Below the pieces are notes generated by a model. That model was not told where the DNA came from and searched no databases. It was given only the letters and a program-made list of their open reading frames with translations. Of a DNA stretch of 38,485 nucleotides, positions 6,310 through 21,667 are shown piece by piece. A program made the translations under genes and the position numbers. Origin of the DNA: an uncultured Planctomycetales bacterium. GTDB taxonomy: Bacteria; Omnitrophota; Gorgyraeia; Gygaellales; Profunditerraquicolaceae. The stretch lies in the NCBI GenBank assembly GCA_964510625.1, contig CAZEBD010000003.1, forward strand, positions 1-38,485. Reading direction: 5' to 3'. Position 1 is the stretch's first letter. Each line of letters opens with the position of its first letter.

Positions 6310-6402
6310 CCGGGTTTAAGGCCTATGATTGCAGTAGCGCTTATAGTTCTTTTTGCTGGTGAAAGTAGTTCACTCGCGTAATTCCGTAGAATAATAAAAA
6401 GC

Positions 6403-6431
6403 TTGACAAGAATAGCAGGATAGTGTATATT
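6403..6431 (+). promoter_or_regulatory. Sigma70-type promoter of the second Fur-family gene
   Basis: TTGACA (6403-6408), 17-nt spacer, TATATT (6426-6431). Confidence 0.6.
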
Positions 6432-6437
6432 TGCAAG

Positions 6438-6452
6438 TGGAAACCATTTTCA
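6438..6452 (+). promoter_or_regulatory. Imperfect Fur-box-like 7-1-7 element at the predicted transcription start (possible autoregulation)
   Basis: TGGAAAC-C-ATTTTCA. The right half is identical to the perfect box at 6985-6999 and the left half matches 5 of 7. Confidence 0.35.
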
Positions 6453-6486
6453 ATAAGCTTGCCTACCGGCAGGCAGAAAGTAATAA

Positions 6487-6960
6487 ATGCCAAGAGGCGG
6501 ATGTAGAGAGCAGGGTTGGTGGCATGGAAAGTTCAGGGGTTGCGGGTATCGGCTTACTTTGGGCCGCGAGGCGATTCTTGATATTCTTTCTAAGTCGCAA
6601 GGCCACTTGAGCGCTGAAGATATCTATATGAAAATCCATCCGAAGTATCCTAATGTAGGCCTGACTACGGTTTACCGGACGCTGGATGTATTATCGGACC
6701 TGGGAATGGTGTATAAGCTTGATTTCGGAGACGGCCGATCACGGTATGAGTTTGCCGAAGGCCCTAAAGGAGCGCATCATCACCACCATTTGGTCTGCAC
6801 ACAATGCAATAAGGTGATTGATTATACGGATTTTATTGATGAAGAAGTGGAGCTGCTTAATCAAACGGAAAAGGGGTTGGGACAGAAATACAAATTTAAG
6901 ATTACAAATCACCTTATACAGTTCTATGGTTTATGCCAGGAATGTAACGGTAAGAAATAA
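6487..6960 (+). CDS. fur: Fur-family metalloregulator
   Basis: 157 aa. RLTLGREAILDIL..., LTTVYRTLDVL recognition helix, HHHHH followed by CTQC, and C-terminal CQEC. It has a Cys-containing N-terminal extension, MPRGGCREQGWWHGKFRGCG. Confidence 0.8.
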   Translation: MPRGGCREQGWWHGKFRGCGYRLTLGREAILDILSKSQGHLSAEDIYMKIHPKYPNVGLTTVYRTLDVLSDLGMVYKLDFGDGRSRYEFAEGPKGAHHHHHLVCTQCNKVIDYTDFIDEEVELLNQTEKGLGQKYKFKITNHLIQFYGLCQECNGKK

Positions 6961-6984
6961 CCGCTATATTTTTTTGACAATAAG

Positions 6985-6999
6985 TGAAAATCATTTTCA
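6985..6999 (+). promoter_or_regulatory. Fur box (perfect 7-1-7 palindrome) inside the promoter of the DUF5320/ORP-like operon
   Basis: TGAAAAT-C-ATTTTCA is a perfect inverted repeat. It differs from the classical 7-1-7 Fur box TGATAATnATTATCA by one symmetric position. It begins 5 nt after a TTGACA -35 hexamer (6974-6979) and ends 24 nt before the ATG at 7024. Confidence 0.6.
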
Positions 7000-7023
7000 T
7001 TAAGAGAAAGGAAGGTGGTAACT

Positions 7024-7521
7024 ATGCCAGGTTTTGACGGAATGGGTCCGAGAGGACAGGGGTCAATGACCGGCCGCGGTGCAGGTTATTGTATCGTGAA
7101 ATTAGATTCTGATAATATTGAAATGAATAATACAGGAAAGGGGGTATCTGATATGCCTAGAGGAGATGGAACTGGACCTATGGGTTTAGGCCCGATGACT
7201 GGAAGATCCGCGGGTTTTTGCGCCGGGTATAATGCTCCAGGTTATATGAATCCAATTTTCGGAGGTTATGCTGGTATGGGCAGGGGATTCTTTGGCCGCG
7301 GAGGTGGTAGAGGCAGGAGAAATTGGTTTTACGCTACTGGGGTTCCTGGATGGCAAAGAGCCACGACGGGGATACCTGCGTTTGGTGGAATGTATCCTTA
7401 CGCGCCGGAAATAACTCCAAAACAGGAGGCGGATATCTTAAAAAAGCAAGCGGATGTTATAAAAAAACAGCTTGAGGATATTCAAGGCCGTATGGAGGCC
7501 TTAGAAAAAATAAAGGAGTGA
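7024..7521 (+). CDS. DUF5320-type protein with a duplicated N-terminal motif, an RG-rich segment and a C-terminal coiled coil
   Basis: 165 aa from ATG 7024. Two copies of the family signature: MPGFDGMGPRGQGSMTGRGAGYC and MPRGDGTGPMGLGPMTGRSAGFC. Also GRGFFGRGGGRGRRN and the heptad tail EADILKKQADVIKKQLEDIQGRMEALEKIKE. Confidence 0.7.
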   Translation: MPGFDGMGPRGQGSMTGRGAGYCIVKLDSDNIEMNNTGKGVSDMPRGDGTGPMGLGPMTGRSAGFCAGYNAPGYMNPIFGGYAGMGRGFFGRGGGRGRRNWFYATGVPGWQRATTGIPAFGGMYPYAPEITPKQEADILKKQADVIKKQLEDIQGRMEALEKIKE

Positions 7522-7523
7522 TT

Positions 7524-7922
7524 ATGCGTGTAGCTATATCTAGTGACGGAGAGTTTGTATCTGCCCATTTTGGCCGATGCCCGACTTTTACCCTTGTTGA
7601 TATTGAAAACGGTAAGGTAACTAAAAGGATAGAGGTGGTAAATCCCGGGCATCAGCCAGGGGCAATCCCTGAGTTTTTGCATCAAAAAGGCGTCAATTGT
7701 ATCATTGCCGGAGGCATGGGGGCGCGGGCAACATTGTTTTTCCAGGAGTATAGTATTCAGACGATTGTCGGGATAAGCGGAAAGATAGATGAGGTGGTAG
7801 AACAACTTAAGAAGGGCACCTTGGAAGGCGGAGAGAGTCTTTGCAAGCCCGGTGCGGGTAAAGGTTATGGTTTAGATAAGTCGGTATGCGACCATCCGCA
7901 CGAAGATAATTGTGAGCATTAG
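7524..7922 (+). CDS. NifX/NifB-C-terminal (dinitrogenase FeMo-cofactor-binding fold) protein, orange-protein (ORP)-like, with a Cys/His-rich tail
   Basis: 132 aa with AAGGAG 5 nt upstream. MRVAISSDGEFVSAHFGRCPTFTLVDIE...GVNCIIAGGMGARA is typical of the family. The tail CKPGAGKGYGLDKSVCDHPHEDNCEH has 3 Cys and 3 His. Confidence 0.7.
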   Translation: MRVAISSDGEFVSAHFGRCPTFTLVDIENGKVTKRIEVVNPGHQPGAIPEFLHQKGVNCIIAGGMGARATLFFQEYSIQTIVGISGKIDEVVEQLKKGTLEGGESLCKPGAGKGYGLDKSVCDHPHEDNCEH

Positions 7923-7935
7923 AAAGGGAGAATCT

Positions 7936-8313
7936 ATGAAAATTTGCGTTACTTCAGAAGGCGGCAATTTAGATTCTAAGGTAGATCCACGCTTTGGCAG
8001 GTGTCAGTATTTCATTATTGTTGATACCGATACTTTAGAATTTGAGGCTATTGTAAATCCGAACATTGAATCTATGGGCGGTGCGGGTATTCAATCTGCG
8101 CAGCTGGTTGCTTCAAAACAGGTTAAGGCTGTGGTAACAGGGAACGTCGGACCGAATGCTTTCCAAACATTACAGGCTGCGGGGGTAGGGATTTTTACCA
8201 ATGCATCGGGCACCATAAAGGAAGCGATTGAAAAATACAAAAAAGGAGAGTTTAAGGCAGTGTCCGGCCCGAGCGTTGTTTCACATTCCGGCATGCCGAA
8301 TAAAAATAAATAA
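7936..8313 (+). CDS. NifX/ORP-like metal-cluster-binding protein (paralogue)
   Basis: 125 aa from ATG 7936 (GGGAG upstream). MKICVTSEGGNLDSKVDPRFGRCQYFIIVD...VKAVVTGNVGPNAFQTLQAAGV. Confidence 0.7.
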   Translation: MKICVTSEGGNLDSKVDPRFGRCQYFIIVDTDTLEFEAIVNPNIESMGGAGIQSAQLVASKQVKAVVTGNVGPNAFQTLQAAGVGIFTNASGTIKEAIEKYKKGEFKAVSGPSVVSHSGMPNKNK

Positions 8314-8327
8314 CCAGGAGAATGTAA

Positions 8328-8441
8328 ATGGCAGCGAAAATAGATATAAATAAATGTAACGGTTGCGGTATATGCCAGGATATTTGCGTCGAGTGCGGTG
8401 CCTGCGCAAATCAGTGCCCGAACGATGCGATATTAATTTAG
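8328..8441 (+). CDS. 37-aa mini-ferredoxin (4Fe-4S-type Cys motifs); absent from the supplied ORF track
   Basis: Translated by hand as MAAKIDINKCNGCGICQDICVECGACANQCPNDAILI. AGGAGAA lies 6 nt upstream and the ORF fills the gap between two genes exactly. It has seven Cys arranged as two overlapping CxxCxxCxxxC motifs that share Cys20. Confidence 0.6.
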   Translation: MAAKIDINKCNGCGICQDICVECGACANQCPNDAILI

Positions 8442-8453
8442 GAGGTGATCATT

Positions 8454-8705
8454 ATGCCATTTTTTGAGTCAATTGAGAAGATGGATCCGAAACATGTTGA
8501 TTTAGAAAGAGCCAGGAAATCTTTGCGGGAAGAGCTTGAAGCGGTTGATTTTTATCAGGAGAGAATAGATGCTACTGATGATGATTCGCTTAAAAAATTA
8601 CTTGCGCACAATATGAATGAAGAAAAAGAGCATGCGGCGATGCTTATAGAATGGATCAGAAAGAATGACCTTGTGCAAAACAAGATGTTTGATGAGCACG
8701 ATTAG
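8454..8705 (+). CDS. Encapsulated-ferritin-like (EncFtn family) protein with no encapsulin partner in the window
   Basis: 83 aa with AGGAGGTGA upstream. EELEAVDFYQERIDATDD..LKKLLAHNMNEEKEHAAMLIEWIRKND closely parallels the R. rubrum EncFtn core as I recall it (EELEAVDWYDQRVDA...ILAHNRDEEKEHAAM.LEWLRR.D). This includes the Glu and ExxH metal ligand positions. Confidence 0.65.
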   Translation: MPFFESIEKMDPKHVDLERARKSLREELEAVDFYQERIDATDDDSLKKLLAHNMNEEKEHAAMLIEWIRKNDLVQNKMFDEHD

Positions 8706-8717
8706 GAGGTGATTGTT

Positions 8718-8924
8718 ATGCCAAGAGGAGATGGAACTGGCCCTAGAAACCAAGGTCTTGGGATGGGAAGAGGTATGGGGATGGGTAGAGGCAGAAGGGG
8801 CAATGCGGGCCCGGGAGGAAATTGTGTATGTCCTGCTTGCGGAGAAAAGGTTGTCCACCCGGCGGGTACGCCTTGCGCTTCAATGAATTGCCCTAAATGC
8901 GGGATAAGAATGGTAAGGGAATAA
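8718..8924 (+). CDS. DUF5320-motif / RG-rich / zinc-ribbon mini-protein
   Basis: 68 aa. MPRGDGTGPRNQGLGMGRGMGMGRGRRGNAGPGG followed by CVCPACG...CPKCG (two CxxC pairs). The first 27 nt match the internal repeat at 7153 at 25 of 27 positions. Confidence 0.6.
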   Translation: MPRGDGTGPRNQGLGMGRGMGMGRGRRGNAGPGGNCVCPACGEKVVHPAGTPCASMNCPKCGIRMVRE

Positions 8925-8934
8925 GGATTAAATT

Positions 8935-9540
8935 TTGGAATATGAAGTTCTTGAAAATCATAAAAGGTATTTAGAAAGAGTCAACTTTTACCGAAGTCAT
9001 GGGTATGACTTAGAAAAGGAAAGAGATTTTATCCTCAATAAATCCCTGCCTATTTCTAAAGAAATTCTTGAAATCGGGACCGGTAAAGGCCACTTTACGC
9101 TTGCTTTAGCAAAGCGAGGCTATAGTTTTATCAGTATAGATATCTCTATGCAGGAACAAGAGATTGCTATGTTGAACTTGCGTTATTTTGGTCTGGAAAA
9201 GCAAGTTGTTCTTAAAATCGAAGATGCGGCAGTCTTGAGTTTTCCGGACCAAAGTTTTAATACTATCTTTTCTATTAATGTATTTCACCACCTTAAAAAA
9301 CCACAAGCGGTTTTAGGCCAAATAATCCGTCTTTTGCGCAATGGCGGTAAGGTGGTATTAAGCGATTTCAGTAATAAAGGGTTGGAGATAATTAACGCCT
9401 GCCATACTTCCGAAGGCCGCAGGCATGATTATTTTAAACATCGCTTAAACGAGGCGAAGGAGTATTTTATCGCGGCAGGTTTTAATGTAAAAAAGGTTCA
9501 AAGCGAAGTTCAAGAAGTGCTTATTGCTGAACGGATTTAA
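8935..9540 (+). CDS. Class I SAM-dependent methyltransferase (tandem paralogue 1)
   Basis: 201 aa with a TTG start. Motif I ILEIGTGKGHFTLALAKRG, then FNTIFSINVFHHL and GGKVVLSDF. Confidence 0.7.
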   Translation: MEYEVLENHKRYLERVNFYRSHGYDLEKERDFILNKSLPISKEILEIGTGKGHFTLALAKRGYSFISIDISMQEQEIAMLNLRYFGLEKQVVLKIEDAAVLSFPDQSFNTIFSINVFHHLKKPQAVLGQIIRLLRNGGKVVLSDFSNKGLEIINACHTSEGRRHDYFKHRLNEAKEYFIAAGFNVKKVQSEVQEVLIAERI

Positions 9541-9561
9541 GGCTAAAAAAAGGATTAAACC

Positions 9562-10203
9562 TTGGATAATGAAATTCTTGAAAATCATAAAATATATTTA
9601 GAGAGAAAAAAGCTTTATCAAAGTTTTGGTTACGACATAGAGAAGGAAAGAGATTTTATCCTAGAGCAGGCCAAGCCTCTCTATGGGAGGATTCTTGAAG
9701 CCGGGACCGGTAAGGGTAATTTTGCGCTGGCTTTAGCTAAAGCCGGGTATTCTTTTGTTACTTTTGATATATCCGCAGTTCAGCAGCGTTTTGCAAAGTT
9801 AAATATAGCGCATTTTGGTTTCCAGGCGCAGGTAGATTTCAGGATTGAAAACGGCGAACATACCAGTTTTTCTGATGGTAGTTTTGATACCGTCCTTTCT
9901 ATCAATGTTATTCATCATCTGCGCAATCCCCATCAAGTACTTGATGAATTAATTAGGCTGCTTTCACAAAATGGAAAATTAATTTTAGCGGATTTTACCG
10001 AAGAAGGTTTTAAAATTATGGATAAGATCCACGCTCTTGAAGGCAATAAACATGAAGTGGGTAAGGTTAAATTAATAGATGCTCAGGCCTATTTAAGGGA
10101 AAAGCGTTTTTTGGTAAGAAGTATCCAGAGTATGTATCAATGTGTATTAATTGCAAGCAGGGACTTAAATAAAATCAATGATCATTTCAATTGCCAGCGG
10201 TAA
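9562..10203 (+). CDS. Class I SAM-dependent methyltransferase (tandem paralogue 2)
   Basis: 213 aa with a TTG start in the same context (AAGGATTAAA-n-TTGGA). ILEAGTGKGNFALALAKAG, then FDTVLSINVIHHL. It shares the N-terminal block ILENHK.YLER...Y.S.GYD.EKERDFIL with the upstream paralogue. Confidence 0.7.
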   Translation: MDNEILENHKIYLERKKLYQSFGYDIEKERDFILEQAKPLYGRILEAGTGKGNFALALAKAGYSFVTFDISAVQQRFAKLNIAHFGFQAQVDFRIENGEHTSFSDGSFDTVLSINVIHHLRNPHQVLDELIRLLSQNGKLILADFTEEGFKIMDKIHALEGNKHEVGKVKLIDAQAYLREKRFLVRSIQSMYQCVLIASRDLNKINDHFNCQR

Positions 10204-11032
10204 GGGCGGCACAGGTAAAACTACGGTTGCGGTTAATTTGGCGTTATCCATTGATAACGTGCAGTTTCTTGACTGTGATGTTGAGGAGCCTAACGCCCAC
10301 ATTTTCTTAAAACCGGTAATCAAAAAACAGGATAAAGCTTATATTCCGGTTCCGGAGATTGATGATTCAAAATGCGTTTATTGCGGCAAATGCGCTAAGG
10401 TTTGTGTTTATAATGCAATAGCGGTACTTCCGGGGAAAGATGGGAAAAAAGGGACTACTTTGGTATTCGCGAATTTGTGCCACGGCTGCGGCGCCTGCAG
10501 TGCTCTTTGCCCTGAAAAGGCAATAAAAGAAGTAAATAGAGAGATCGGGGTAGTTGAGATAGGTAATTGCGGAAAAATAGAATTTATTCATGGGTTGCTG
10601 AATATCGGCGAAGCAATGTCTCCGCCGCTCATTCGCCAGGTTAAAGAGCATATTAATCCTAAAAAAACCGTCATCATTGATGCTCCCCCGGGCACGTCTT
10701 GCCCTGTAGTTACTTCTGTTAAGGACAGTGATTTTTGCGTGTTAGTTACCGAGCCTACGCCTTTTGGCCTAAATGACTTGATTTTAGCGGTTGAGGTTTT
10801 GAGAAAATTAAAGATCCCCTTTGGGGTAGTTATCAACCGCTCGGATTTAGGAAATAATAAAACAGAAGAATATTGTAAGCAAGAAAATATTTCCGTTTTG
10901 ATGAGGATACCGTTTAAAAGAGAAATAGCCATGGCTTATTCAAAGGGGGAGGCGATTGTTCAGGCATTTCCAGAATATAAAAAAGATTTCCAGAGGCTTT
11001 TTAAGCTAATTAGAGATGGAAAATTTAGTTAA
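10178..11032 (+). CDS. MinD/ParA-type P-loop ATPase with an inserted 2x[4Fe-4S] ferredoxin domain
   Basis: 284 aa. Deviant Walker A SGKGGTGKTT, then CVYCGKCAKVC and CHGCGACSALCP, then IIDAPPGTSCPV. Confidence 0.8.
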   Translation: MIISIASGKGGTGKTTVAVNLALSIDNVQFLDCDVEEPNAHIFLKPVIKKQDKAYIPVPEIDDSKCVYCGKCAKVCVYNAIAVLPGKDGKKGTTLVFANLCHGCGACSALCPEKAIKEVNREIGVVEIGNCGKIEFIHGLLNIGEAMSPPLIRQVKEHINPKKTVIIDAPPGTSCPVVTSVKDSDFCVLVTEPTPFGLNDLILAVEVLRKLKIPFGVVINRSDLGNNKTEEYCKQENISVLMRIPFKREIAMAYSKGEAIVQAFPEYKKDFQRLFKLIRDGKFS

Positions 11033-11426
11033 AGATTTTTTAAAGCAGAAAAGTTTTGCTGTAGTAGGGTCATTCAGGAATGAAACAAAATTTGCCTATA
11101 AGATTTTAGTTAATTTGACAGAAAAAGGCTATGAGGTATTTCCGGTTAATCCGCGCTTGAGGGAAGTGGAGGGCAAAATTTGTTATAAAACGATAAGCGA
11201 TATTCCGTATAGTGTGGATGTGGTTAATATCGTTACACCTCCGTTAGTAACGGAAAGTATTTTAAAAGAATGCCTGCAAAAAGGCATAAAAAGAGTCTGG
11301 CTTCAGCCTGGGGCAGAGAGCCAGGCTTCCATCAGGTTTTGCCATGATAACAATATTAAGGTAGTCCATGGTGTTTGTGTAATGTTGGAATCGTTAAAAG
11401 AAGAGAAGAGGAGAGGCGATGAATAA
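11016..11426 (+). CDS. CoA-binding domain protein (YccU/YneT-like)
   Basis: 136 aa. FAVVGSFRNETKFAYKIL...GYEVFPVNP...VDVVNIVTPP...VWLQPGAES. Confidence 0.7.
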   Translation: MENLVKDFLKQKSFAVVGSFRNETKFAYKILVNLTEKGYEVFPVNPRLREVEGKICYKTISDIPYSVDVVNIVTPPLVTESILKECLQKGIKRVWLQPGAESQASIRFCHDNNIKVVHGVCVMLESLKEEKRRGDE

Positions 11427-12768
11427 AAAGACAGACATATTAATTATCGGCGCCGGTCCGGCGGGAGTAGTTTGCGCTGTAACTGCTAGAAAATATTATC
11501 CCGATAAGAGCATTACGGTGATCAAAAATATCGCCGACGGAGTGATTCCCTGTGGAATTCCGTATATGTTTGCCAGTTTAAATAACCCCGATGAAAATAA
11601 GTTAGGAATGGCCTCTTTAGAAAAGAATAATATTGAAATAGTTATTGATACAGCTGTAAGTATAAACAGAAAAGATAAAATAGTGGATTCGGAGAACAAA
11701 ATCCGGTATTCTTACGAAAAGTTAGTTTTAGCAGTTGGTTCAACCCCCTTAATCTTACCCATTAAAGGTGTAGATAAGCAAGGGGTGTATCCAATAAATA
11801 AAGAAATGGGGTATTTAAAGAATGTTATAGATCAGATTAAGCGCTGTAAGAATGTTTTAGTCATCGGCGGAGGTTTCATCGGAGTTGAGTTTGCTGATGA
11901 GCTCTCTAAAATAAAAGGTATAAAGGTTACCTTAGTAGAAATGCTGCCGCATTTACTGGCTAATTCATTTGATCCGGAGTTCTCGCAGATGGCTCAAATA
12001 CGGTTAAAGGAAAAAGGAGTCAATGTTTTAACGAATACCCGGGTTGAAGAGATAATTGGCCAAGATAAAGTGGAAAAGGTGAAGTTTAGTGATGGCCAAG
12101 AAATACCGATTGAGGGAGTAATTCTTGGTGTCGGTTCAAAGCCGAATGTAAAATTAGCAGTAGATGCCGGATTAGAACTGGGGTCCTGTAAAGGTATTTT
12201 AACTGATGAATATATGCGTACTTCGGTGGATGCGGATATTTTCGCGATTGGAGATTGTGCTTGTAAAAGGGATTTTTATACTCGAAAGGCCATCGCAGTG
12301 ATGTTGGCTTCTACCGCAACAGCCGAAGCCAGAATCGCCGGAGCTAATCTTTATCAGATAAAAGTTATCCGTGAGAATAAGGGGACGATTGCTATATATT
12401 CAACCTATATTGATGGCCTGGTTTTGGGTTCAGCGGGGCTTACCGAAAAATCTGCCCGGGATGAGAATTTTGAAATTGTCGTTTGTAGCATAGATGGTGT
12501 GGATAAACATCCCGCTTCATTGCCGGGGTCACATAAGGGTAAAATCAAGCTGATTTTCTCTAAACAGTCCGGTATTATTTTAGGCGGCCAGGTCAGCTGT
12601 GGCATGTCTTGTGCGCAAATGATCAATATAATCGGTATCGCTATCCAGAAGCGTATGTCGGCAACGGAGCTGGAGACCCTGCAGGTAGCTACGCATCCTT
12701 ATTTAACCAGCGCGCCGACGATGTACCCGATTATTTTAGCCGCGCAGGATGTGTACGGAAAATTGTAG
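11419..12768 (+). CDS. FAD-dependent pyridine nucleotide-disulfide oxidoreductase, single-Cys CoADR/NSR/NADH-oxidase type
   Basis: 449 aa. ILIIGAGPAGV (FAD), VIPCGIPYMF (redox Cys in the context seen in archaeal CoADR/NSR enzymes), VLVIGGGFIGVEFA (NAD(P)H), FAIGDC. Confidence 0.75.
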   Translation: MNKKTDILIIGAGPAGVVCAVTARKYYPDKSITVIKNIADGVIPCGIPYMFASLNNPDENKLGMASLEKNNIEIVIDTAVSINRKDKIVDSENKIRYSYEKLVLAVGSTPLILPIKGVDKQGVYPINKEMGYLKNVIDQIKRCKNVLVIGGGFIGVEFADELSKIKGIKVTLVEMLPHLLANSFDPEFSQMAQIRLKEKGVNVLTNTRVEEIIGQDKVEKVKFSDGQEIPIEGVILGVGSKPNVKLAVDAGLELGSCKGILTDEYMRTSVDADIFAIGDCACKRDFYTRKAIAVMLASTATAEARIAGANLYQIKVIRENKGTIAIYSTYIDGLVLGSAGLTEKSARDENFEIVVCSIDGVDKHPASLPGSHKGKIKLIFSKQSGIILGGQVSCGMSCAQMINIIGIAIQKRMSATELETLQVATHPYLTSAPTMYPIILAAQDVYGKL

Positions 12769-12820
12769 CTTAAAAAGATCGGAATTAAAAAGAGGCATTT
12801 ATTTTTAAAGGATAAAAATA

Positions 12821-13681
12821 ATGAAACAAATTGTAGTAATCAGCGGAAAAGGCGGCACGGGTAAAACCGTAATCACCGGAGCGTTTGCGGCTTTGGCAAA
12901 AAATCATGTTATGGCTGATTGCGATGTTGACGCAGCTGACCTGCATTTATTGCTGCAGCCAAAAATTAAATTCCGCCAAGATTTTAGAAGCGGCCTGAGC
13001 GCCGTAATTGATAAAAAAACCTGTCAGCAATGCGGCAAATGCATCGCGGCTTGTAGATTTAACGCTATCAGTGATAGTTTTGTGATTGATCATGTGTCTT
13101 GCGAGGGCTGTGGTTTTTGCAGTCATATCTGCCCGGTGGGTGCTATAAAGATGGAGGAGAACCTTGCCGGAGAATGGTTTATTTCCCAAACGCGTTTTGG
13201 TCTTATGGTGCACGCTAAGCTTGGTATCGCTGAAGAAAATTCAGGAAAACTTGTCTCTTTGGTGCGCAAGCAGGCGAAAGAATTGGCACTGAAGACCGGT
13301 TGCGATTGGGTAATTATTGACGGCGCTCCGGGCATAGGCTGCCCGGTTATCGCTTCGCTTTCCGGAATAGATTGCGCGGTAGTAGTCACTGAGCCTACGT
13401 TATCCGGCCTGCATGATGCTTTAAGGGTTATAGAAGTAACCAAACATTTTAATGTCCCCTCGCGGCTAATAATTAATAAATATGATTTAAACCCGGATAT
13501 GTCAAAAAGAATAGAAGATCATTGCGTAAAAAACGGGATTTCGTTGATCGGCAAAGTCAGGTTTGATAAAACAGTGGTTGAAGCCATGGTTGAGGGTAAG
13601 ACGATTATGGAATACAAGGATACGCCAGTTAAGGATGATATTCGCGGCATTTGGGAAAAGTTACAGGTATGGATTATATAA
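12821..13681 (+). CDS. MinD/ParA-type P-loop ATPase with an inserted 2x[4Fe-4S] ferredoxin domain (paralogue)
   Basis: 286 aa. SGKGGTGKTV, CQQCGKCIAAC, CEGCGFCSHICP, IIDGAPGIGCPV. Same architecture as 10178-11032. Confidence 0.8.
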   Translation: MKQIVVISGKGGTGKTVITGAFAALAKNHVMADCDVDAADLHLLLQPKIKFRQDFRSGLSAVIDKKTCQQCGKCIAACRFNAISDSFVIDHVSCEGCGFCSHICPVGAIKMEENLAGEWFISQTRFGLMVHAKLGIAEENSGKLVSLVRKQAKELALKTGCDWVIIDGAPGIGCPVIASLSGIDCAVVVTEPTLSGLHDALRVIEVTKHFNVPSRLIINKYDLNPDMSKRIEDHCVKNGISLIGKVRFDKTVVEAMVEGKTIMEYKDTPVKDDIRGIWEKLQVWII

Positions 13682-14667
13682 ATAGGCGGGATATTCACGT
13701 ATTAAAATATTTTTCATCGTTTATTAGCGTATCTTGCGGGAAAGTAATTAATATTACTGAGCCAACGCTTAGATTTTGCCCATTAGCAAAACATTTATGT
13801 AAAGATTTTAGCAATATAAAGGGTAATGATAAGGAAGCGATTAAAAGCGCGATTAAAAGCGTAATTGAATCAAAAATAAAAGATTATGGTTTTTTTACTG
13901 ATCATAGGAAGCTTACCTGCGGAGATGTTTTAATTCCATATGGGGCATCAGAGATGCTTATGTTGGCGTTAAGAAAAAGCGTAATTGACGTTGCAGTTGT
14001 AGTCTGTGAAGGGGCCGGTACAGTTATCGTGCCGGAGCCGGAAGTTGTCCAAGGTATAGGCGCGCGAATGAATAGCTTGTTGTTAACCTCGCCAATTAAA
14101 GGCATTATTGGAAAACTTAAAACTGCCGGTTGCCGGATAGTATCTGAAAACGCGCTGATTGACCAGTTTCGGGGGGTTAAGGAAGCGATAAAAGCAGGGT
14201 ATAAAACTATCGCTGTTACGGTAAGCGGAGATTCGGCTGAGAATTTAAAGAGGATGCGTTTGTTAGAAAAAGAAAACGGCGTTAAAATAATTTTATTGGT
14301 GGTATGCACGACTGGTATAACTAATGATAAGATTGCTATGATAGGCGATTACGCTGATTTGGTGTGGAGTTGTGCCTCTTCTGATTTGCGCCAGATGATT
14401 GGGCCTTTAGCGATAATACAACTTTCTAAACAAATACCAGTTTTTGTTTTAACTAAGAATGGAGTTGATTTTGTTTCTGCTTATGCGGAAGAAAGCGAAA
14501 ATATTCATAGTTTGGATATAAATAAACAATATCTTTTTTCAAATGATCACAGCGGGAAATGCGTGCATTTAGGAAATTTTAAGGTATTCATCAGTGTGTC
14601 TAAATTGCCGGTTAATGCCCGGAGCATGCCGAGTTTTAAAGATAAAAACGAATACGCGCCTGTATAG
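13669..14667 (+). CDS. Conserved hypothetical protein, possibly DUF2099 / methanogenesis-marker-8-like (name uncertain)
   Basis: 332 aa from ATG 13669 (13-nt overlap with the upstream gene). VVVCEGAGTVIVPEPEVVQGIGARM and IAVTVSGD resemble what I recall of DUF2099, but I cannot verify this. The gene itself is well supported by its length and operon fit; the family call is not. Confidence 0.4.
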   Translation: MDYINRRDIHVLKYFSSFISVSCGKVINITEPTLRFCPLAKHLCKDFSNIKGNDKEAIKSAIKSVIESKIKDYGFFTDHRKLTCGDVLIPYGASEMLMLALRKSVIDVAVVVCEGAGTVIVPEPEVVQGIGARMNSLLLTSPIKGIIGKLKTAGCRIVSENALIDQFRGVKEAIKAGYKTIAVTVSGDSAENLKRMRLLEKENGVKIILLVVCTTGITNDKIAMIGDYADLVWSCASSDLRQMIGPLAIIQLSKQIPVFVLTKNGVDFVSAYAEESENIHSLDINKQYLFSNDHSGKCVHLGNFKVFISVSKLPVNARSMPSFKDKNEYAPV

Positions 14668-14696: not shown

Positions 14697-15044
14697 ATGG
14701 CAAGTAAGAGTAATGAAGAAGAGTTTTTTGGCAGAATGAACGATCCCACAAGTTCGTCATATTTAAAGGGGCCTTGTGGGGACGCGATGGAGTTTTATTT
14801 GGTGATTGAAGATGAAAGGATTACCGATATTAAATATTACACAGATGGATGCGGCGCCACAAGGGCATGCGCTGCAATGACCGCACATCTGGCTTATGGC
14901 AAAACTATTAATGAAGCATTGGCTATTTCAGCCGGAGAAGTGATTAAACAGCTTAAAGGCCTACCTGTAGATCACTTGCACTGTTCAATACTGTCCATAA
15001 GCACCCTTTATAGGGCAATCGCGGATTATTTATTAAAAAGGTAA
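14697..15044 (+). CDS. IscU/NifU-N-terminal-like Fe-S scaffold protein
   Basis: 115 aa. Three scaffold Cys in the canonical contexts GPCGDAMEF, TDGCGATRACAA and HLHCS. Confidence 0.7.
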   Translation: MASKSNEEEFFGRMNDPTSSSYLKGPCGDAMEFYLVIEDERITDIKYYTDGCGATRACAAMTAHLAYGKTINEALAISAGEVIKQLKGLPVDHLHCSILSISTLYRAIADYLLKR

Positions 15045-15060: not shown

Positions 15061-15876
15061 ATGAATGAGCAGGATTTCGTAGAGCAGGAAAAACAGCTTA
15101 AAGAGAGAATGTCTAAAATTAAGCATCCTCTGATTGTGATGAGCGGTAAAGGCGGGGTAGGCAAGACTACGGTAGCGGTTAACCTTGCGTATGCACTTTC
15201 TCTTACTGGTAAGTCAGTCGGTATTTTAGATATCGATCTCCATGGGCCTAATATTGCTAAAATGCTTGGTATAGAGAGCCACTCAATCTCCGCCCACAAG
15301 CTTGGTATAGAGCCTGTTTTAGTCAGCGCAAATCTTAAAGCAGTGAGCATCGCCCTTTCAGGCTACAATCCTGATCAGCCGATAATTTGGCGTGGGCCTG
15401 CGAAAGCCGCGGTGATCCGGCAATTTTTAAGTGATGTAAACTGGGGCAATTTAGATTATCTGGTGATTGACGCTCCTCCCGGGACAGGGGATGAGCCGTT
15501 AAGCGCTTGCCAACTTATTCCTAATTTAAGCGGGATTATTATCGTAACTACGCCGCAGGATGTTGCTATACTTGATGCGCGAAAAAGTGTTTTGTTCGCT
15601 CAGGAAATAAAAGTACCGGTAGTCGGTATAATTGAAAATATGAGCGGGTTTATTTGCCCGCATTGCCAGGGGCAAACAGATATTTTTAAAAAAGGCGGTG
15701 GTGAGCAAGCTGCGCAAGGATTAAAGGTTCCGTTTTTAGGCAGGGTGCCGTTTCAGCCGGAATTTGTTGATTTTGGCGATAAGGGAACACCGTTTGTTTC
15801 ATTTCAAGAAAAATCAAAATCCGCCGAGGCCTTTATGGGAATTGTGGATAAAATAAAAGAATTTGTCGAGCAATAG
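15061..15876 (+). CDS. apbC: Mrp/ApbC/NBP35-family Fe-S cluster carrier ATPase
   Basis: 271 aa. VMSGKGGVGKTTVAVNLA, LVIDAPPGTGDE, and the CPHC cluster-bridging motif (FICPHCQGQTDIF). Confidence 0.85.
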   Translation: MNEQDFVEQEKQLKERMSKIKHPLIVMSGKGGVGKTTVAVNLAYALSLTGKSVGILDIDLHGPNIAKMLGIESHSISAHKLGIEPVLVSANLKAVSIALSGYNPDQPIIWRGPAKAAVIRQFLSDVNWGNLDYLVIDAPPGTGDEPLSACQLIPNLSGIIIVTTPQDVAILDARKSVLFAQEIKVPVVGIIENMSGFICPHCQGQTDIFKKGGGEQAAQGLKVPFLGRVPFQPEFVDFGDKGTPFVSFQEKSKSAEAFMGIVDKIKEFVEQ

Positions 15877-15879: not shown

Positions 15880-16671
15880 ATGAAAACCGCGTTTAAATAT
15901 ATTTATGGCCCGGTTCCTTCTTGGAGGCTGGGAAGCTCTTTAGGGATAGACCCGATCTCCAAAGGGAGAAAAATTTGTAGTTTTGATTGTATTTATTGTC
16001 AGATTGGGAAAACGGGGCTTTTTACTCATGAAAGAAAAAAATTTATTGAAATTAAGGAGATTGTTGAGGAACTGTCTATTTTGCCTCCGTTGAAAATAGA
16101 TTATATAACATTTTCAGGGGCCGGGGAACCTACATTGGCTGAGAATTTAGGGGAGATGATAAAAGCAGTAAAATTAATCCGTAAAGAGCCAATTGCAGTT
16201 ATAACTAATGGCTCTTTAATGGAATTAAGCCAGGTAAGAGCGGAGCTGGCTTTAGCAGATTTTGTTATTGTTAAGCTAGATGCCTGTTCTCAAGAGTCTT
16301 TACAGGAGATTAATCGGCCGGTTAAGGTGGTAAGATTCGATAATATTTTAGAAGGCATAAAGGAATTTAGGGGTAATTATCAGGGAAAGTTAGCCTTGCA
16401 GATAATGTTCATAGAAAACAATAAACAGGATATTAATAAATATATTTATCTTACAAATTATATCAATCCGGATGAGGTCCAGTTAAATACGCCGTTAAGG
16501 CCTTGTCATGTTAAACCGTTAGCAGAGGGAGAAATTTTAAAGATAAAGAGTTATTTTAATTCCGTTTGTAAAGGGGTTAATCTGATTTCGGTTTATGATG
16601 AACGGGCGCCTAAGGATATTGCATCTATAAGCGATGAAGAGACTTTGAAAAGGCGGGGTAAAATTAAGTGA
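15880..16671 (+). CDS. Radical SAM protein (subfamily unknown)
   Basis: 263 aa. YGPVPSWRLGSSLGIDP...CSFDCIYCQ (Cx3Cx2C) and FSGAGEPTL (SAM-binding GGE-like). Confidence 0.8.
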   Translation: MKTAFKYIYGPVPSWRLGSSLGIDPISKGRKICSFDCIYCQIGKTGLFTHERKKFIEIKEIVEELSILPPLKIDYITFSGAGEPTLAENLGEMIKAVKLIRKEPIAVITNGSLMELSQVRAELALADFVIVKLDACSQESLQEINRPVKVVRFDNILEGIKEFRGNYQGKLALQIMFIENNKQDINKYIYLTNYINPDEVQLNTPLRPCHVKPLAEGEILKIKSYFNSVCKGVNLISVYDERAPKDIASISDEETLKRRGKIK

Positions 16672-17570: not shown

Positions 17571-18048
17571 CGTTTTAAGAAAGAAAGCGCTTGAGATAAA
17601 AGAGGTTACAGATACAGAAGTAAGGCTTTTTGAAGAGATGCTTTTTACTATGCGGTATTTTACGGGGATTGGTTTAGCGGCCCCTCAAATCGGGGTTGCA
17701 AAAAGTTTAATCGTTGTGGATATCGGCGAAGGCGCAATCAAATTAGCTAATCCGGTGATTATGGGTTCAAAAGGTTTAGGTAAAAAATGGGAGGAAGGAT
17801 GTTTAAGTGTTCCGGGAATAGGGGTGAGTATTGCCCGGCCGGAGGAAATTATCGTAAGCGGGTTAAATGAATCGGGAAAGGTTATTGAACTGGAGGCGCA
17901 GGGGCTTTTAGCAAGAGTTTTACAGCATGAAATAGACCACTTGCAAGGAAAACTAATTATTGATTATTTGGGATTATTGGAAAAGACGATGTTGTTCAAG
18001 CTGAAATTTCAAAAGGCCAAAGAAAAACATACCAATCTATCAATGTAA
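17536..18048 (+). CDS. def: Peptide deformylase
   Basis: 170 aa. All three motifs are present: GIGLAAPQIG, EGCLSVPG and QHEIDHLQG. Confidence 0.9.
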   Translation: MEPLEIKKYPDSVLRKKALEIKEVTDTEVRLFEEMLFTMRYFTGIGLAAPQIGVAKSLIVVDIGEGAIKLANPVIMGSKGLGKKWEEGCLSVPGIGVSIARPEEIIVSGLNESGKVIELEAQGLLARVLQHEIDHLQGKLIIDYLGLLEKTMLFKLKFQKAKEKHTNLSM

Positions 18049-21295: not shown

Positions 21296-21296
21296 A

Positions 21297-21617: not shown

Positions 21618-21628
21618 AAGAAAAAATT

Positions 21629-21667
21629 AGCGCTGATTCTTAAACTGGATCAGCGCTATTTTTTTTC
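21629..21667 (+). terminator. Rho-independent terminator ending the long metal/Fe-S gene string
   Basis: AGCGCTGAT-11 nt-ATCAGCGCT followed by TATTTTTTTT. An A-run upstream suggests it may work in both directions. Confidence 0.85.

Follow-up and report, generated by a model that had tools for sequence, protein, structure and literature searches.

The locus described here, in a 38,485-nucleotide stretch from an uncultured Omnitrophota bacterium (the window), is best read as one long transcription unit of about 26 genes and ~15 kb that runs from a promoter at 6403 to a terminator near 21628 (Table 1), and we consider it probable (roughly 0.6) that this unit is an orange-protein (ORP)-type operon for iron-sulfur (Fe-S) handling that is repressed by Fur and induced by iron limitation. 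Its first gene encodes a Fur-family metalloregulator (FurB), and the rest comprises ORP-type machinery along with general accessories for Fe-S and iron. Two NifX-like carrier proteins, two MinD-type ATPases with ferredoxin inserts, and two conserved, Gly/Arg-rich DUF5320-motif proteins, taken to be intrinsically disordered, make up the ORP-type part; the accessories include an IscU-type scaffold, an Mrp carrier, an Rrf2 regulator, a thioredoxin, a J-protein, a CoA-persulfide/disulfide-reductase-like enzyme, a DsrE-like sulfur carrier, and a ZIP metal importer. An earlier note on this DNA had proposed an ORP-type system under Fur-family control and merged with Fe-S and iron-related genes, and the comparative evidence lends support to that proposal.

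The genes of the unit are co-directional and overlap or are tightly packed through to the DsrE-like gene, whose true start is probably near 21297. Because closely spaced or overlapping same-strand genes lead up to a strong terminator, we favor a single operon extending to 21628. This terminator, which ranks top among the plus-strand terminators between 3400 and 23300 (longest stem, most GC pairs), probably marks where transcription of the unit stops, and no terminator was found between fur and the cluster. The earlier note had ended the cluster at 13681, but packed genes on the same strand run on from there to the terminator; for the genes at 7024-13681, profile classification and gene order agree with its list.

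Table 1. Features of the transcription unit and its control region (positions in the window)
Feature	Position	Strand	Support
P_fur, sigma-70-type promoter TTGACA-17-TATATT upstream of fur	6403..6431	+	11/12 matches
Operator O1, candidate Fur box TGGAAACCATTTTCA	6438..6452	.	25.2 bits (PWM)
FurB, Fur-family regulator	6487..6960	+	PF01475 E 6e-33
Conserved TATATTTTTTT element directly after fur stop codon	6965..6975	+	nearly all orthologous loci
Operator O2, perfect candidate Fur box TGAAAATCATTTTCA	6985..6999	.	28.7 bits (PWM)
DUF5320 protein	7024..7521	+	PF17253 E 7e-37
NifX-like protein 1 (NifX1)	7518..7922	+	PF02579 E 1e-20
NifX-like protein 2 (NifX2), orange-protein (Orp8)/MTH1175/IssA-type domain	7936..8313	+	PF02579 E 1.5e-25
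Remnant ferredoxin (Fer4), 37 aa	8328..8441	+	
EncFtn-like ferritin-like protein	8454..8705	+	PF22277 E 1e-29
sDUF5320, small 68-aa Gly/Arg/Cys-rich DUF5320-motif protein	8718..8924	+	
MT1, class I SAM methyltransferase	8935..9540	+	50.5% identical to MT2
MT2, class I SAM methyltransferase, recent tandem duplicate	9562..10203	+	
MinDFd1, MinD/ParA-type ATPase, inserted 2x[4Fe-4S] ferredoxin domain, Orp3/Orp4-like	10178..11032	+	
CoA-binding domain protein (CoA_binding_2)	11016..11426	+	PF13380 E 5e-34
CoA-disulfide/persulfide-reductase-like (CoADR-like) flavoprotein	11419..12768	+	Pyr_redox_2 E 2e-63
MinDFd2, second MinD-type ATPase with 2x[4Fe-4S] insert	12821..13681	+	33.7% identity to MinDFd1
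DUF2099/methanogenesis-marker-8-like protein	13651..14667	+	PF09872 E 7e-77
IscU/NifU_N-type Fe-S scaffold	14697..15044	+	PF01592 E 3e-22
Mrp/ApbC/NBP35-type Fe-S carrier ATPase	15061..15876	+	PF10609 E 2e-93
Radical SAM protein, distantly MoaA-like	15880..16671	+	
DUF89/ARMT1-like damage-control phosphatase	16668..17570	+	
Peptide deformylase paralogue	17536..18048	+	
Rrf2-family regulator, three clustered Cys (IscR-like)	18049..18459	+	
Thioredoxin	18515..18835	+	
J-domain protein	18879..19193	+	
MT3, third SAM methyltransferase	19169..19810	+	
ZIP-family divalent-metal importer	19837..20577	+	PF02535 E 6e-49
Metallo-beta-lactamase-fold protein	20582..21295	+	
DsrE/DsrF-like sulfur-relay protein	21192..21617	+	PF02635 E 1.4e-11, residues 36-141
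Intrinsic terminator	21628..21666	+	12-bp stem, 6 GC pairs, then T8

P_fur is the sole promoter-like site found in the interval 6250-7100, and 17 orthologous Omnitrophota loci have TTGACA-N17-TATAtT at the corresponding position. O1, a 2-mismatch box upstream of fur that was absent from the earlier list, starts 6 nt past the -10 hexamer, and the expected transcription start falls inside it. O2 is located in the fur-DUF5320 intergenic region, 24 nt upstream of the DUF5320 start codon. Both the palindrome TGAAAATCATTTTCA (6985-6999) and the TTGACA (6974-6979) that had been reported directly after the Fur-family gene are present; the TTGACA had been taken for a -35 element, but it is not conserved in the orthologues, and we do not call a promoter there. 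The TATATTTTTTT element, which is located 14 to 15 nt upstream of the second box in orthologous loci, may be the -10 of an internal promoter.

The two boxes occupy fixed positions in all 17 Omnitrophota orthologous loci as well as in one Nitrospirota locus (L020) and one Elusimicrobia locus (L034). The position weight matrix (PWM) was built from 39 box sites, every one of which has C or G as its center base, and sites of at least 20 bits in 530 kb of loci are essentially confined to the regions just upstream of fur or between fur and DUF5320, the exception being one extra site at position 215 of L020. A box precedes the DUF5320 start in 19 of 39 loci chosen by DUF5320 homology and in 12 of the 13 box-selected loci that hold a DUF5320 gene. 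The box consensus, AATGRAAAYSRTTTYCATT, equals the delta-proteobacterial dFUR box, WTGAAAATNATTTTCAW, which has been found upstream of feoAB and fur genes (PMC545781); this match and the conserved positions in orthologues argue for the earlier assignment of the 7-1-7 motif to the Fur operator type. When public genomes were scanned for the box only, ORP-like clusters were recovered at 13 to 14 of 120 loci (Omnitrophota, Aminicenantes, Acidobacteriota, Spirochaetia, and Elusimicrobia), and among the families that flank the box, DUF5320 ranked fourth by frequency, behind ABM, FUR, and ZIP but before FeoB. Elsewhere in Elusimicrobia (L052), accessory genes (CoADR-like, Mrp, Trx) each have a box of their own, as does the CoADR-like homologue in a Leptospirales locus (L113).

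We propose that a metal-loaded Fur dimer (most likely Fe2+) would bind the two 7-1-7 operators, O1 over the fur transcription start and O2 between fur and the DUF5320 gene, and thereby repress the unit, and that iron scarcity, or possibly oxidative stress, would take the repressor off the DNA and allow the whole unit to be expressed. Once made, the encoded proteins would take up metal and assemble, repair, or reallocate Fe-S clusters with little outlay of iron, a role that can be likened to that of the Fur-repressed suf operon of E. coli. FurB could be a dedicated rather than a global regulator. An iron-storage-like gene (EncFtn-like) behind a promoter induced at low iron is counterintuitive and counts against this reading.

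The ORP-type identity of the cluster, also claimed previously, is supported by comparison. Among solved structures, NifX2 best matches the D. gigas orange protein (2WFB, E 4.5e-22), NifX2 is 41 to 50% identical to Desulfobacterota ORP genes, and the two MinDFd ATPases are 38 to 57% identical to the ATPase pair that follows the ORP genes in about 70 of 80 Desulfobacterota loci; in locus L145, they are fused as a single ORF. NifX1 matches the MrpORP model NF041136 over positions 264-364 (94 bits) and has TM1290 and PH0822 as PDB relatives, and the Mrp-type ATPase of the unit is a standalone counterpart of the MrpORP P-loop domain. NifX1 and NifX2 share 30% identity. Judged by sequence, NifX1/NifX2 and MinDFd1/MinDFd2 are ancient paralogue pairs that define ORP systems. 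The description of the cluster as duplicated and built from pairs thus holds for the methyltransferases MT1 and MT2 (50.5% identity), the sole recent local duplication, which are represented by a single copy in orthologous loci, but the other pairs are ancient paralogues.

The two DUF5320-motif genes are likewise a pair only in part: both have the N-terminal motif, but the 68-aa protein shares only that 25- to 29-aa stretch with the longer one (PF17253 E 0.043; blastp 56% over 25 aa). The longer protein begins with two copies of MP(R/G)xDGxGP..GRGxG(Y/F)C, each with one invariant Cys, followed by a Gly/Arg/aromatic-rich disordered region and a C-terminal coiled-coil helix. AlphaFold2 gave pLDDT values of <50 for residues 1-125 and of 81 to 91 for the helix (132-164); residues 1-125 are therefore predicted to be disordered, yet they are highly conserved. 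The small protein combines MPRGDGTGP, a Gly/Arg-rich stretch, and a six-Cys module (CxCPxCG..PC..CPKCG).

These features bear on a doubtful alternative, namely, that the NifX-like and DUF5320 proteins act like Pyrococcus IssA split into separate chains and serve Fe-S storage rather than assembly; they would nucleate and wrap a thioferrate-like, anionic inorganic Fe-S polymer or large clusters, with the MinD-ferredoxin ATPases loading or unloading this store and Fur tying it to iron status. MTH1175, the second-best solved relative of NifX2 (4e-20), is the template for the IssA domain, and the IssA tail (21% Gly, 20% aromatic, 10% cationic, pI 10.7), likewise proposed to be disordered without ligand (PMC5524996), is close in composition to DUF5320, in which a 59-aa middle-region stretch has 29% Gly, 20% aromatic residues, and 10% Arg and residues 1-125 have a pI of 9.8. 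The invariant Cys of each motif and the EncFtn-like gene within the cluster would also suit storage, and in seven Desulfobacterota loci a single ORF joins a Nitro_FeMo-Co domain, a Gly/Arg-rich linker, and the sDUF5320 Cys module in an IssA layout. However, the likeness of DUF5320 to the IssA tail is one of composition only, none of 159 loci showed a NifX domain fused to the long form of DUF5320, the NifX2 tail is short, and from the operator geometry one would expect expression when iron is low, a condition that does not suit storage.

Several other genes vary among orthologous loci. The 37-aa ferredoxin ORF listed previously is present, but it is a derivative, by an in-frame 18-codon deletion, of a 55-aa 2x[4Fe-4S] ferredoxin kept in 7 orthologous loci. 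The EncFtn-like gene is found in only some orthologous loci, and the ORFs of the window that were searched included no encapsulin shell gene. The CoA_binding_2 gene is a variable insert between both ATPase genes. The CoADR-like flavoprotein has its active-site Cys in PCGIPY, and its best NCBIfam match is CoA-disulfide reductase (216 bits, under the cutoff); the DUF2099 protein scored 230.2 bits against TIGR03275 (cutoff, 232.7).

The N-terminal extension of FurB (GWWHGKFRGCGY) is conserved, and the protein also has an HHHHH motif and two CxxC pairs. Among NCBIfam models, it scored best with Bacillus-type Fur (138 bits), followed by PerR (93 bits) and Zur (44 bits), and its PDB relatives include Fur 9ire (5.6e-32), C. 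jejuni Fur, and B. subtilis PerR (2fe3, 8.6e-25). We think it unlikely that FurB is a PerR-like peroxide or redox sensor acting on a Fur-type box, with the operon being an oxidative-stress regulon for Fe-S protein repair. FurB does have Asp at the PerR Asp104 position, after its first CxxC (CTQCNKVID), as does B. subtilis PerR (CENCGKIVD), where the compared Fur proteins have Glu, and the operon includes a thioredoxin, a CoADR-like reductase, a rubrerythrin-related EncFtn-like protein, and an Rrf2 regulator. Nevertheless, Fur outscores PerR among structure relatives as well (114 versus 91 bits), FurB has Glu rather than Asp at the PerR Asp85 position, its recognition helix (TVYRTL) has the Arg of Fur proteins where PerR has Asn, the box equals the Fur consensus known upstream of feoAB, and no catalase, AhpC, or rubrerythrin gene is present in the unit.

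A zinc sensor (Zur) controlling a zinc limitation regulon is highly unlikely. The same box type does serve Zur regulons of Actinobacteria (ZIP-fur operons in Planktophila, ZnuA), an identical 19-mer is found in front of ZIP-fur operons and ZnuA genes of other phyla, and GC pairs at positions 2, 8, and 14, the signature of the Streptomyces Zur box (PMC9371925), are also found in the box here, which has C or G at its center throughout; therefore, the box by itself does not specify the metal. ZIP, metallo-beta-lactamase-fold, and peptide deformylase genes in the operon would fit zinc as well. However, FurB has Glu (RYEFAEG) where box-linked actinobacterial homologues have Cys (YRLCGE), which we take to be the regulatory-site ligand of actinobacterial Zur. 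Moreover, Zur scores lowest for FurB also among structures (67 and 56 bits), the regulated proteins are overwhelmingly Fe-S proteins, and the window has a separate Zur candidate (FurA) with a Gram-positive-type Zur box before a QueD/PTPS paralogue.

A role of the NifX-like proteins as nitrogenase cofactor maturation factors, for which the Pfam Nitro_FeMo-Co domain in both and a nearby radical SAM gene might speak, is effectively refuted, in keeping with the earlier note: no nif gene lies within the 38 kb, nifHDK/ENB genes were not found there or in the 17 Omnitrophota orthologous loci, the closest relatives are ORP, MTH1175, TM1290, and the MrpORP Di-Nase domain with NifX/NafY models unmatched, and the radical SAM protein is MoaA-like rather than NifB-like. 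A palindrome that arose by chance or has a structural function, with no part in regulation, is scarcely credible: perfect 7-1-7 palindromes do occur in the window at chance level (3 seen versus 3.7 ± 1.8 expected), and the significance of O2 therefore derives from its conservation across loci, but box position and sequence are kept amid diverging flanks in >30 loci from at least 6 phyla, the fur promoter has a second copy, and the sequence is identical to a described Fur consensus.

As far as the earlier note's own counterindications could be looked for, we found no nif context, a further copy of the box, and a conserved neighborhood. Desulfobacterota orp loci have similar ORP genes and ATPases, but 80 of them have neither fur nor the box; the orp genes of Desulfovibrio respond not to iron but to low redox potential, at which OrpR and sigma-54 activate them (PMC8359166). 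With its own Fur-family sensor and two conserved Fur operators, the Omnitrophota machinery is therefore probably on at low iron, and this probable control by iron scarcity makes the role of the poorly understood ORP machinery of anaerobes testable.

The earlier note's gene list was recovered in full by Pfam and NCBIfam, and the palindrome (TGAAAATCATTTTCA) and TTGACA hexamer that it had reported right behind the gene for FurB, the Fur-family regulator, are both present (see table). Its end point for the cluster, 13681, proved to be arbitrary; the genes run on, overlapping or separated by gaps of at most 56 nt. Nearly all long open reading frames (ORFs) of the window (38,485 bp; GC content, 42.7%) are on the plus strand. 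The promoter P_fur is the sole strong sigma-70-type promoter around fur, no terminator was found between fur and the cluster, and the terminator at 21628 has the longest stem and the most GC pairs among plus strand terminators between 3400 and 23300. Given the gene packing, the position of this terminator, the single strong promoter, and the lack of a terminator after fur, the transcription unit likely extends from 6403 to ~21666 (~15 kb, ~26 genes). An Rfam scan of the window matched no riboswitch or other known RNA family.

Features of the predicted unit, of the FurA region, and of loci used for comparison (window positions unless a fetched locus, L plus number, is named)
Feature	Position	Strand	Description
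FurA promoter	3728-3756		TTGACA-17-TATAGT
FurA, second Fur-family gene	3764-4198		Start probably ATG at 3764
Zur-type box	4214-4235		AAGTCGTATAAACTACGATTTA, past FurA stop codon
6-Pyruvoyl-tetrahydropterin-synthase (PTPS)/QueD-like gene	4341-4832		Preceded by the Zur-type box
P_fur	6403-6431		TTGACA-17-TATATT
O1, Fur box	6438-6452		TGGAAACCATTTTCA, two mismatches, upstream of fur
FurB	6487-6960		Fur family, 157 aa; PF01475 over full length
FurB N-terminal extension	6487-6560		Before first Fur helix; also in L001-L017, L020, L034
TTGACA hexamer	6974-6979		
O2, Fur box	6985-6999		Perfect palindrome
DUF5320 protein			Two N-terminal motif copies; Pfam/NCBIfam
NifX1	7518-7922		Nitro_FeMo-Co (NifX-like); Pfam/NCBIfam
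NifX2	7936-8313		Nitro_FeMo-Co (NifX-like); Pfam/NCBIfam
Fer4 ORF	8328-8441		37 aa; Pfam/NCBIfam
EncFtn-like protein			Pfam/NCBIfam
sDUF5320			Gly/Arg/Cys-rich, 68 aa
MT1, MT2			Class I SAM methyltransferases; Pfam/NCBIfam
MinDFd1, MinDFd2			MinD/ParA ATPases with 2x[4Fe-4S] inserts; Pfam CbiA/ParA and Fer4 x2 in both
CoA_binding_2 protein, then CoADR-like flavoprotein			Pfam/NCBIfam
DUF2099/methanogenesis-marker-8-like protein	13651-14667		
NifU_N scaffold			IscU type
Mrp/NBP35 carrier	15061-15876		
Radical SAM protein; DUF89 phosphatase			
Peptide deformylase	17536-18048		
Rrf2 regulator			Three clustered Cys
Thioredoxin; J-domain protein; third methyltransferase; ZIP importer; metallo-beta-lactamase-fold protein			
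DsrE/DsrF-like sulfur-relay protein	21192-21617		Final gene of unit; Pfam match from residue 36
Intrinsic terminator	21628-21658	+	12-bp stem, T8
Firmicutes cluster regions with a Fur-family gene	L032 5558-6674; L033 810-1925		More distant Fur family (36% identity)
Fused MinD-ferredoxin ATPases	L145 ~3593-5000		Spirochaetia
NifX-sDUF5320 fusions	L160 11696-12376; L188 2000-2602; L232 6819-7397; also L175, L196, L209, L223		Desulfobacterota
Box-scan ORP-like clusters, Omnitrophota	L047, L062, L064, L075, L093, L151		
Same, labelled uncultured Planctomycetales	L043, L153		
Same, Aminicenantes	L060, L123, L129		
Same, Acidobacteriota	L137		
Same, Spirochaetia	L145		
Same, Elusimicrobia	L052		CoADR-like gene and Mrp...Trx unit each with own box
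Actinobacteria ZIP/Fur box loci	L045, L048, L069, L073, L079, L080, L084, L085, L088, L089, L091, L115, L125, L131, L136		

The core proteins resemble those of orange protein (ORP) systems. The best PDB match of NifX2 was the Desulfovibrio gigas orange protein (2WFB; E = 4.5e-22 over 112 residues), with MTH1175 second, and NifX2 shares 41 to 50% identity with ORP genes in 80 Desulfobacterota loci, which we retrieved using the sequence of the D. gigas orange protein. MinDFd1 and MinDFd2 are 38 to 57% identical to the ATPase pair adjoining the ORP genes in 69 to 71 of these 80 loci. In MrpORP (Orp9), an Mrp/NBP35 P-loop domain is fused to a Di-Nase domain. NifX1 matched the MrpORP model NF041136 in its Di-Nase part only (positions 264 to 364; 94 bits against a cutoff of 450), and both MrpORP domains are therefore present in unfused form, with NifX1 of the Di-Nase type and the Mrp gene apart from it. 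The system has in common with that of Desulfovibrio an orange-protein-type Nitro_FeMo-Co protein (NifX2, corresponding to Orp8), two paralogous MinD-like ATPases with two [4Fe-4S] motifs each (corresponding to Orp3 and Orp4), an MrpORP-type Di-Nase domain together with an Mrp/NBP35 ATPase, and specificity to anaerobes; a NifU_N gene also often adjoins ORP loci (37 of the 80 in Desulfobacterota). It differs in that Mrp and Di-Nase are separate genes ~7 kb apart, DUF5320 proteins head the operon, ~15 additional genes occur in the predicted unit, and the host belongs to the Omnitrophota. Regulation differs as well: whereas the Desulfovibrio system depends on sigma-54, OrpR, and IHF, the window has a Fur gene and two Fur boxes. 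We found no sigma-54 activator gene among the window ORFs searched and no sigma-54-type promoter on the plus strand upstream of the cluster, and matches to such promoters across the window were at chance level. OrpR has been described as an addition made in delta-proteobacteria (PMC8359166). ORP systems also have a small Cys-rich [2Fe-2S] protein, Orp5 (Dde_3197). The six-Cys protein sDUF5320 precedes the ATPase genes and is positioned like orp5 in orp5-orp4-orp3, a likeness of gene position only; none of 13 Desulfovibrionaceae-type loci checked had an sDUF5320-like ORF. In one Spirochaetia locus, both MinD-ferredoxin ATPases are encoded by a single ORF with two GKGGTGKT Walker A motifs, which argues that the two ATPases act as a heterodimer. 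The matches of NifX2, NifX1, and the two ATPases described above support assignment of the window system to the ORP kind.

Nitrogenase cofactor assembly (NifH with NifX/NafY/NifB) likewise pairs small Nitro_FeMo-Co carriers with an Fe-S ATPase that has a deviant Walker A motif and is of the MinD/NifH superfamily, but a role of the NifX-like proteins as nitrogenase maturation factors was rejected: they gave no NCBIfam NifX, NafY, or NifB match. The window carriers are of other clades, and where NifH has a bridging cluster, the window ATPases have a ferredoxin insert. With no nif genes, whether structural or scaffold, among the window ORFs searched or in the orthologous loci, the earlier note was right to set nitrogen fixation aside.

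The description of the cluster as duplicated had to be given up, as its pairs are of mixed age. NifX1 and NifX2 (30% identity) and MinDFd1 and MinDFd2 (33.7%) are ancient paralogues, and ORP systems are intrinsically made of paralogue pairs. MT1 and MT2, in contrast, were duplicated locally and recently, since they are 50.5% identical and correspond to a single gene in orthologous loci. The double N-terminal motif of the DUF5320 protein corresponds to two adjacent genes in two Firmicutes loci. In these same loci, a more distant Fur-family gene lies within the cluster, between the DUF5320 genes and a MinD-ferredoxin gene, and has only a weak box-like site (13.9 bits) upstream. The ferredoxin member seems to be decaying: the window ORF reflects in-frame loss of 18 codons (PVNAIKIEKEKAVISDDC) from a 55-aa 2x[4Fe-4S] ferredoxin, the copy in L005 has lost several Cys residues, and other loci are without the gene, although the full-length protein is kept in L003, L004, L006, L007, L008, L015, and L017. 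We also considered the EncFtn-like protein as an encapsulin cargo and rejected this; the domain is present, but no encapsulin family was found among the window ORFs searched, and the C terminus (...MFDEHD) has no obvious targeting peptide. The DUF2099 protein scored 230.2 bits against TIGR03275 ("methanogenesis marker 8"; cutoff, 232.7), a family defined as methanogen restricted. Here, the gene lies in a bacterial Fe-S operon, and Omnitrophota orthologues are 54 to 77% identical. DUF2099, the Pfam counterpart of TIGR03275, is described as conserved in archaea (Pfam), and a literature search on methanogenesis marker 8/DUF2099 returned nothing relevant.

A perfect 7-1-7 palindrome is not unusual on its own, since the window contains three and a first-order Markov model predicts 3.7 +/- 1.8. 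The proposal that the palindrome is a Fur-type operator nevertheless gains support from its match to a described consensus and from its conservation in 19 of 39 unbiased loci and in 12 of 13 loci selected by the box; the alternative of a chance palindrome was rejected. The box consensus here is that of the dFUR box, WTGAAAATNATTTTCAW, which was derived from the regions upstream of feoAB and fur of delta-proteobacteria (Rodionov et al., PMC545781), and O2 matches its core at 15 of 15 positions. Every Omnitrophota locus has two boxes at fixed positions: O1, upstream of fur, in the layout cTTGACA-N17-TATAtT-N6-TGGAAAYSATTTTCA, and O2, past the fur stop codon and ahead of the DUF5320 start, in the layout TATATTTTTTT-N~9-taaTGGAAATGATTTTCA. 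A Nitrospirota locus (L020) and an Elusimicrobia locus (L034) have boxes at the same two positions. The matrix built from 39 sites, AATGRAAAYSRTTTYCATT, invariably has C or G as the center base, and sites of at least 20 bits in 530 kb of fetched loci were essentially confined to the O1 and O2 position types, with one extra site at position 215 of L020. Because O1 starts 6 nt past the -10 hexamer, it would cover the transcription start, the classical geometry of repression and autoregulation. The -35 element that had been assigned to TTGACA upstream of O2 did not hold up; the hexamer is absent in orthologues, which have TTCTCT, TTAATT, and others instead, and the promoter scanner made no call there. 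What is conserved ahead of O2 is the element TATATTTTTTT, and this could serve as the -10 hexamer of an internal promoter of low strength.

The 39 genomic loci were fetched via homology to the DUF5320 protein, whose named homologues are from "Candidatus Omnitrophota." Gene order is kept in 17 Omnitrophota loci, in line with the neighborhood conservation on which the earlier note had made its proposal depend. This order (variable genes in parentheses) is fur, DUF5320, NifX1, NifX2, (ferredoxin), (EncFtn-like), sDUF5320, methyltransferase, MinDFd1, (CoA-binding, CoADR-like), MinDFd2, DUF2099, NifU_N, (Mrp), radical SAM, DUF89, Rrf2, and MBL/Trx. A core that lacks fur but has DUF5320, a pair of NifX-like genes, a pair of MinD-ferredoxin ATPase genes, and Mrp, in some cases joined by DUF89 or radical SAM, occurs in Planctomycetota, Chloroflexota, Thermotogota, Ignavibacteria, Syntrophorhabdus, and others.

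We also searched with the box alone, matching AATGRAAATSATTTTCATT against 185,579 species genomes; at least 120 loci matched. Among the 120 matches listed, 13 to 14 lie on ORP-like clusters (see table), including two labelled uncultured Planctomycetales that are probably Omnitrophota too, since their FurB proteins are 71 to 85% identical to that of the window. All but one of the box-selected clusters with a DUF5320 gene have the box directly upstream of that gene, at a distance that is mostly 14 to 35 nt but reaches ~100 nt in a few loci. In the 120 matches listed, the families next to the box were ABM (17), FUR (16), ZIP (14), DUF5320 (7), class II tRNA synthetase (4), FeoB (3), ZnuA (2), TonB plug (2), and Pyr_redox_2 (2). 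These counts suggest that the box is a general Fur-family operator in iron and zinc regulons, of which DUF5320/ORP is a recurrent member. An identical 19-bp box precedes ZIP-transporter/Fur-family operons of freshwater Actinobacteria (Planktophila and Nanopelagicaceae), so that one operator sequence appears in the apparent zinc- or iron-uptake regulons of distant phyla. In the 80 Desulfobacterota orp loci, on the other hand, neither a fur gene nor a box adjoined the cluster, and none of the 19 DUF5320 genes in those loci had a box, which agrees with the control by sigma-54 and OrpR known from this clade (PMC8359166). The dFUR regulons of Desulfovibrio and Geobacter (Rodionov et al. 2004) share with the window the 17-bp consensus, a box at the promoter of fur itself, as expected for autoregulation, and operators at or just downstream of the promoter. 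ORP genes are absent from their described membership, which comprises feoAB, flavodoxin, porins, and hypothetical genes, whereas the box in the window would serve an ORP/Fe-S operon, and the window regulator forms a subfamily of its own with the N-terminal extension GWWHGKFRGCGY.

Comparison with characterized regulators makes iron the most likely signal of FurB. Its best matches are Fur proteins (Bacillus-type Fur, 138 bits; 9ire, 5.6e-32), its recognition helix, TVYRTL, has Arg as in Fur proteins where PerR has Asn, and Arg at that position goes with boxes having G at position 2. In an alignment to Fur and PerR structures, H39, E88, the HHHHH run, the Asp after the first CxxC, the H in ITNH, and both CxxC pairs are intact. 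A PerR-like sensor of iron and peroxide is possible: FurB has Asp at the Asp104 position of PerR, where the Fur proteins compared carry Glu, but it has Glu at the Asp85 position and scores lower against PerR (93 bits; 2fe3, 8.6e-25) than against Fur. Zinc sensing appears unlikely, as matches to Zur were the lowest (44 to 67 bits) and as RYEFAEG in FurB has Glu where box-linked Actinobacterial homologues have Cys (YRLCGE), a regulatory-site ligand in actinobacterial Zur. The box cannot name the metal, since the Streptomyces Zur box is built in the same way, as a 7-1-7 repeat, and its signature GC pairs, at positions 2, 8, and 14 (PMC9371925), are present in the window box too. FurB orthologues constitute a distinct subfamily whose N-terminal extension travels with the ORP cluster across phyla. 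The extension, MPRGxCRGQGWWHGKFRGCGY, includes an invariant Cys and opens like the DUF5320 motif (MPRG...).

FurA is the better Zur candidate, because a box of the Gram-positive Zur type, matching the ZUR consensus at 18 of 21 positions, and the PTPS/QueD-like gene lie behind it. The FurA region has the appearance of a Zur regulon in which regulator, operator, and targets are arranged as they are at FurB. Its promoter ends 7 nt before the ATG, so that the FurA transcript may be leaderless.

DUF5320 is essentially unstudied, and we found only incidental mentions of it in the literature. In the alignment of these proteins, the invariant N-terminal motif MPxGDGTGPxGxGPxTGRxxGxC precedes a Gly/Arg/aromatic-rich stretch, and an amphipathic helix lies at the C terminus. 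AlphaFold2 predicted residues 1 to 125 to be disordered (pLDDT <50) despite their conservation and placed a confident helix at 132 to 164. Within the middle region, a 59-aa segment consists of 29% Gly, 20% aromatic residues, and 10% Arg; the pI of residues 1 to 125 is 9.8. These values are close to those of the thioferrate-binding tail of IssA from Pyrococcus furiosus (21% Gly, 20% aromatic, 10% cationic, pI 10.7, one Cys; PMC5524996), the comparison being one of composition and not of sequence. All DUF5320 proteins begin with a strictly conserved Met-Pro motif, and a peptide deformylase paralogue is encoded within the operon; a link between this enzyme and N-terminal processing of DUF5320 proteins is conceivable.

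The short protein sDUF5320 joins the DUF5320 N-terminal motif to a Gly/Arg run and a six-Cys module, CxCPxCG...PC...CPKCG. In seven Desulfobacterota loci, this module follows a Nitro_FeMo-Co domain and a Gly/Arg-rich linker in a single ORF; the three fusions that we compared with PF02579 scored 32, 29, and 25 bits, and some fusions keep an internal "IMPRG" start motif. No fusion of NifX to the long form of DUF5320 was found in 159 loci, so that fusions were seen only with the short Cys-rich form. Such Rosetta-stone fusions, laid out as in IssA, link the NifX-like and Gly/Arg/Cys parts. The window system and IssA share the globular domain family (IPR003731/PF02579), an associated polypeptide that is cationic, disordered, and rich in Gly and aromatic residues and has a single Cys, and a tie to the iron-sulfur economy of an anaerobe. 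They differ in that the "tail" in the window is split off into genes of its own, DUF5320 and sDUF5320, with NifX1 and NifX2 having short tails only (pI 5.8 and 8.6), and in that DUF5320 has an extra conserved N-terminal motif and a coiled coil and the window has dedicated ATPases.

What the sequences themselves establish is the identity of the genes and the sequence, placement, and conservation of the operators. In the model inferred from these, metal-loaded FurB would repress the unit at O1 and O2, and iron limitation, possibly also oxidative stress, would derepress it. The ZIP protein would then import a divalent metal, and the CoADR-like enzyme, its CoA-binding partner, and the DsrE-like protein would supply reduced sulfur; with no cysteine desulfurase gene in the unit and these genes present, sulfide or persulfide is presumably used directly. 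IscU and Mrp would assemble and carry clusters, while the ORP core, made up of the NifX-like and DUF5320 proteins and the MinD-ferredoxin heterodimer, would use ATP and low-potential electrons to build, hold, or mobilize metal-sulfur species. The suf Fe-S assembly operon of Escherichia coli is Fur repressed and offers a functional analogy, an Fe-S biogenesis operon induced at limiting iron, although the components are wholly different and the predicted unit in the window has no SufBCD, SufS, or SufE gene. The core could be an economical maker of ordinary clusters or a manager of a polymeric Fe-S store. Assembly or mobilization fits better than deposition, because the operator geometry implies induction at low iron. 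A bolder proposal, which we consider rather unlikely, is that DUF5320 and sDUF5320 are trans-acting counterparts of the IssA tail that, with the orange-protein-type NifX domains and the ATP-driven MinD-ferredoxin ATPases, template, cap, or dismantle an inorganic anionic Fe-S polymer or large cluster, which would make ORP an Fe-S mineral-handling machine and, in six or more phyla, the leading target of Fur.

The first isolation of the orange protein dates from 2004 and the description of its complex from 2011; the system is widespread in anaerobic bacteria and archaea. To our knowledge, redox control by OrpR in Desulfovibrio has been the sole regulatory clue so far. The components found here belong to this known but poorly understood kind. 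What is new is the conserved Fur wiring, absent in the clade where ORP was defined; the leading place of DUF5320 among the genes behind the operator, seen in six or more phyla; the large supra-operon for Fe-S and iron functions in Omnitrophota; and the NifX-sDUF5320 fusion tying ORP to IssA-type biology. Our literature search found no description of these four features, and a search on Fur regulons and NifX-like genes in anaerobes returned nothing relevant. The conserved, cross-phylum ORP-Fur wiring leads to a testable hypothesis, namely, that ORP serves the iron or Fe-S economy when metal is limiting. The occurrence of DUF5320 directly after the operator, as first gene, in 12 of the 13 box-selected loci and the IscU, Mrp, Rrf2, ZIP, and sulfur-relay genes of the predicted unit point in the same direction. 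These results also provide a first functional context for DUF5320, and the Rosetta-stone fusion connects ORP biology with the thioferrate story of IssA. If the IssA-tail reading were true, the "ORP system" widespread in anaerobes would be one of iron-sulfur mineral handling.
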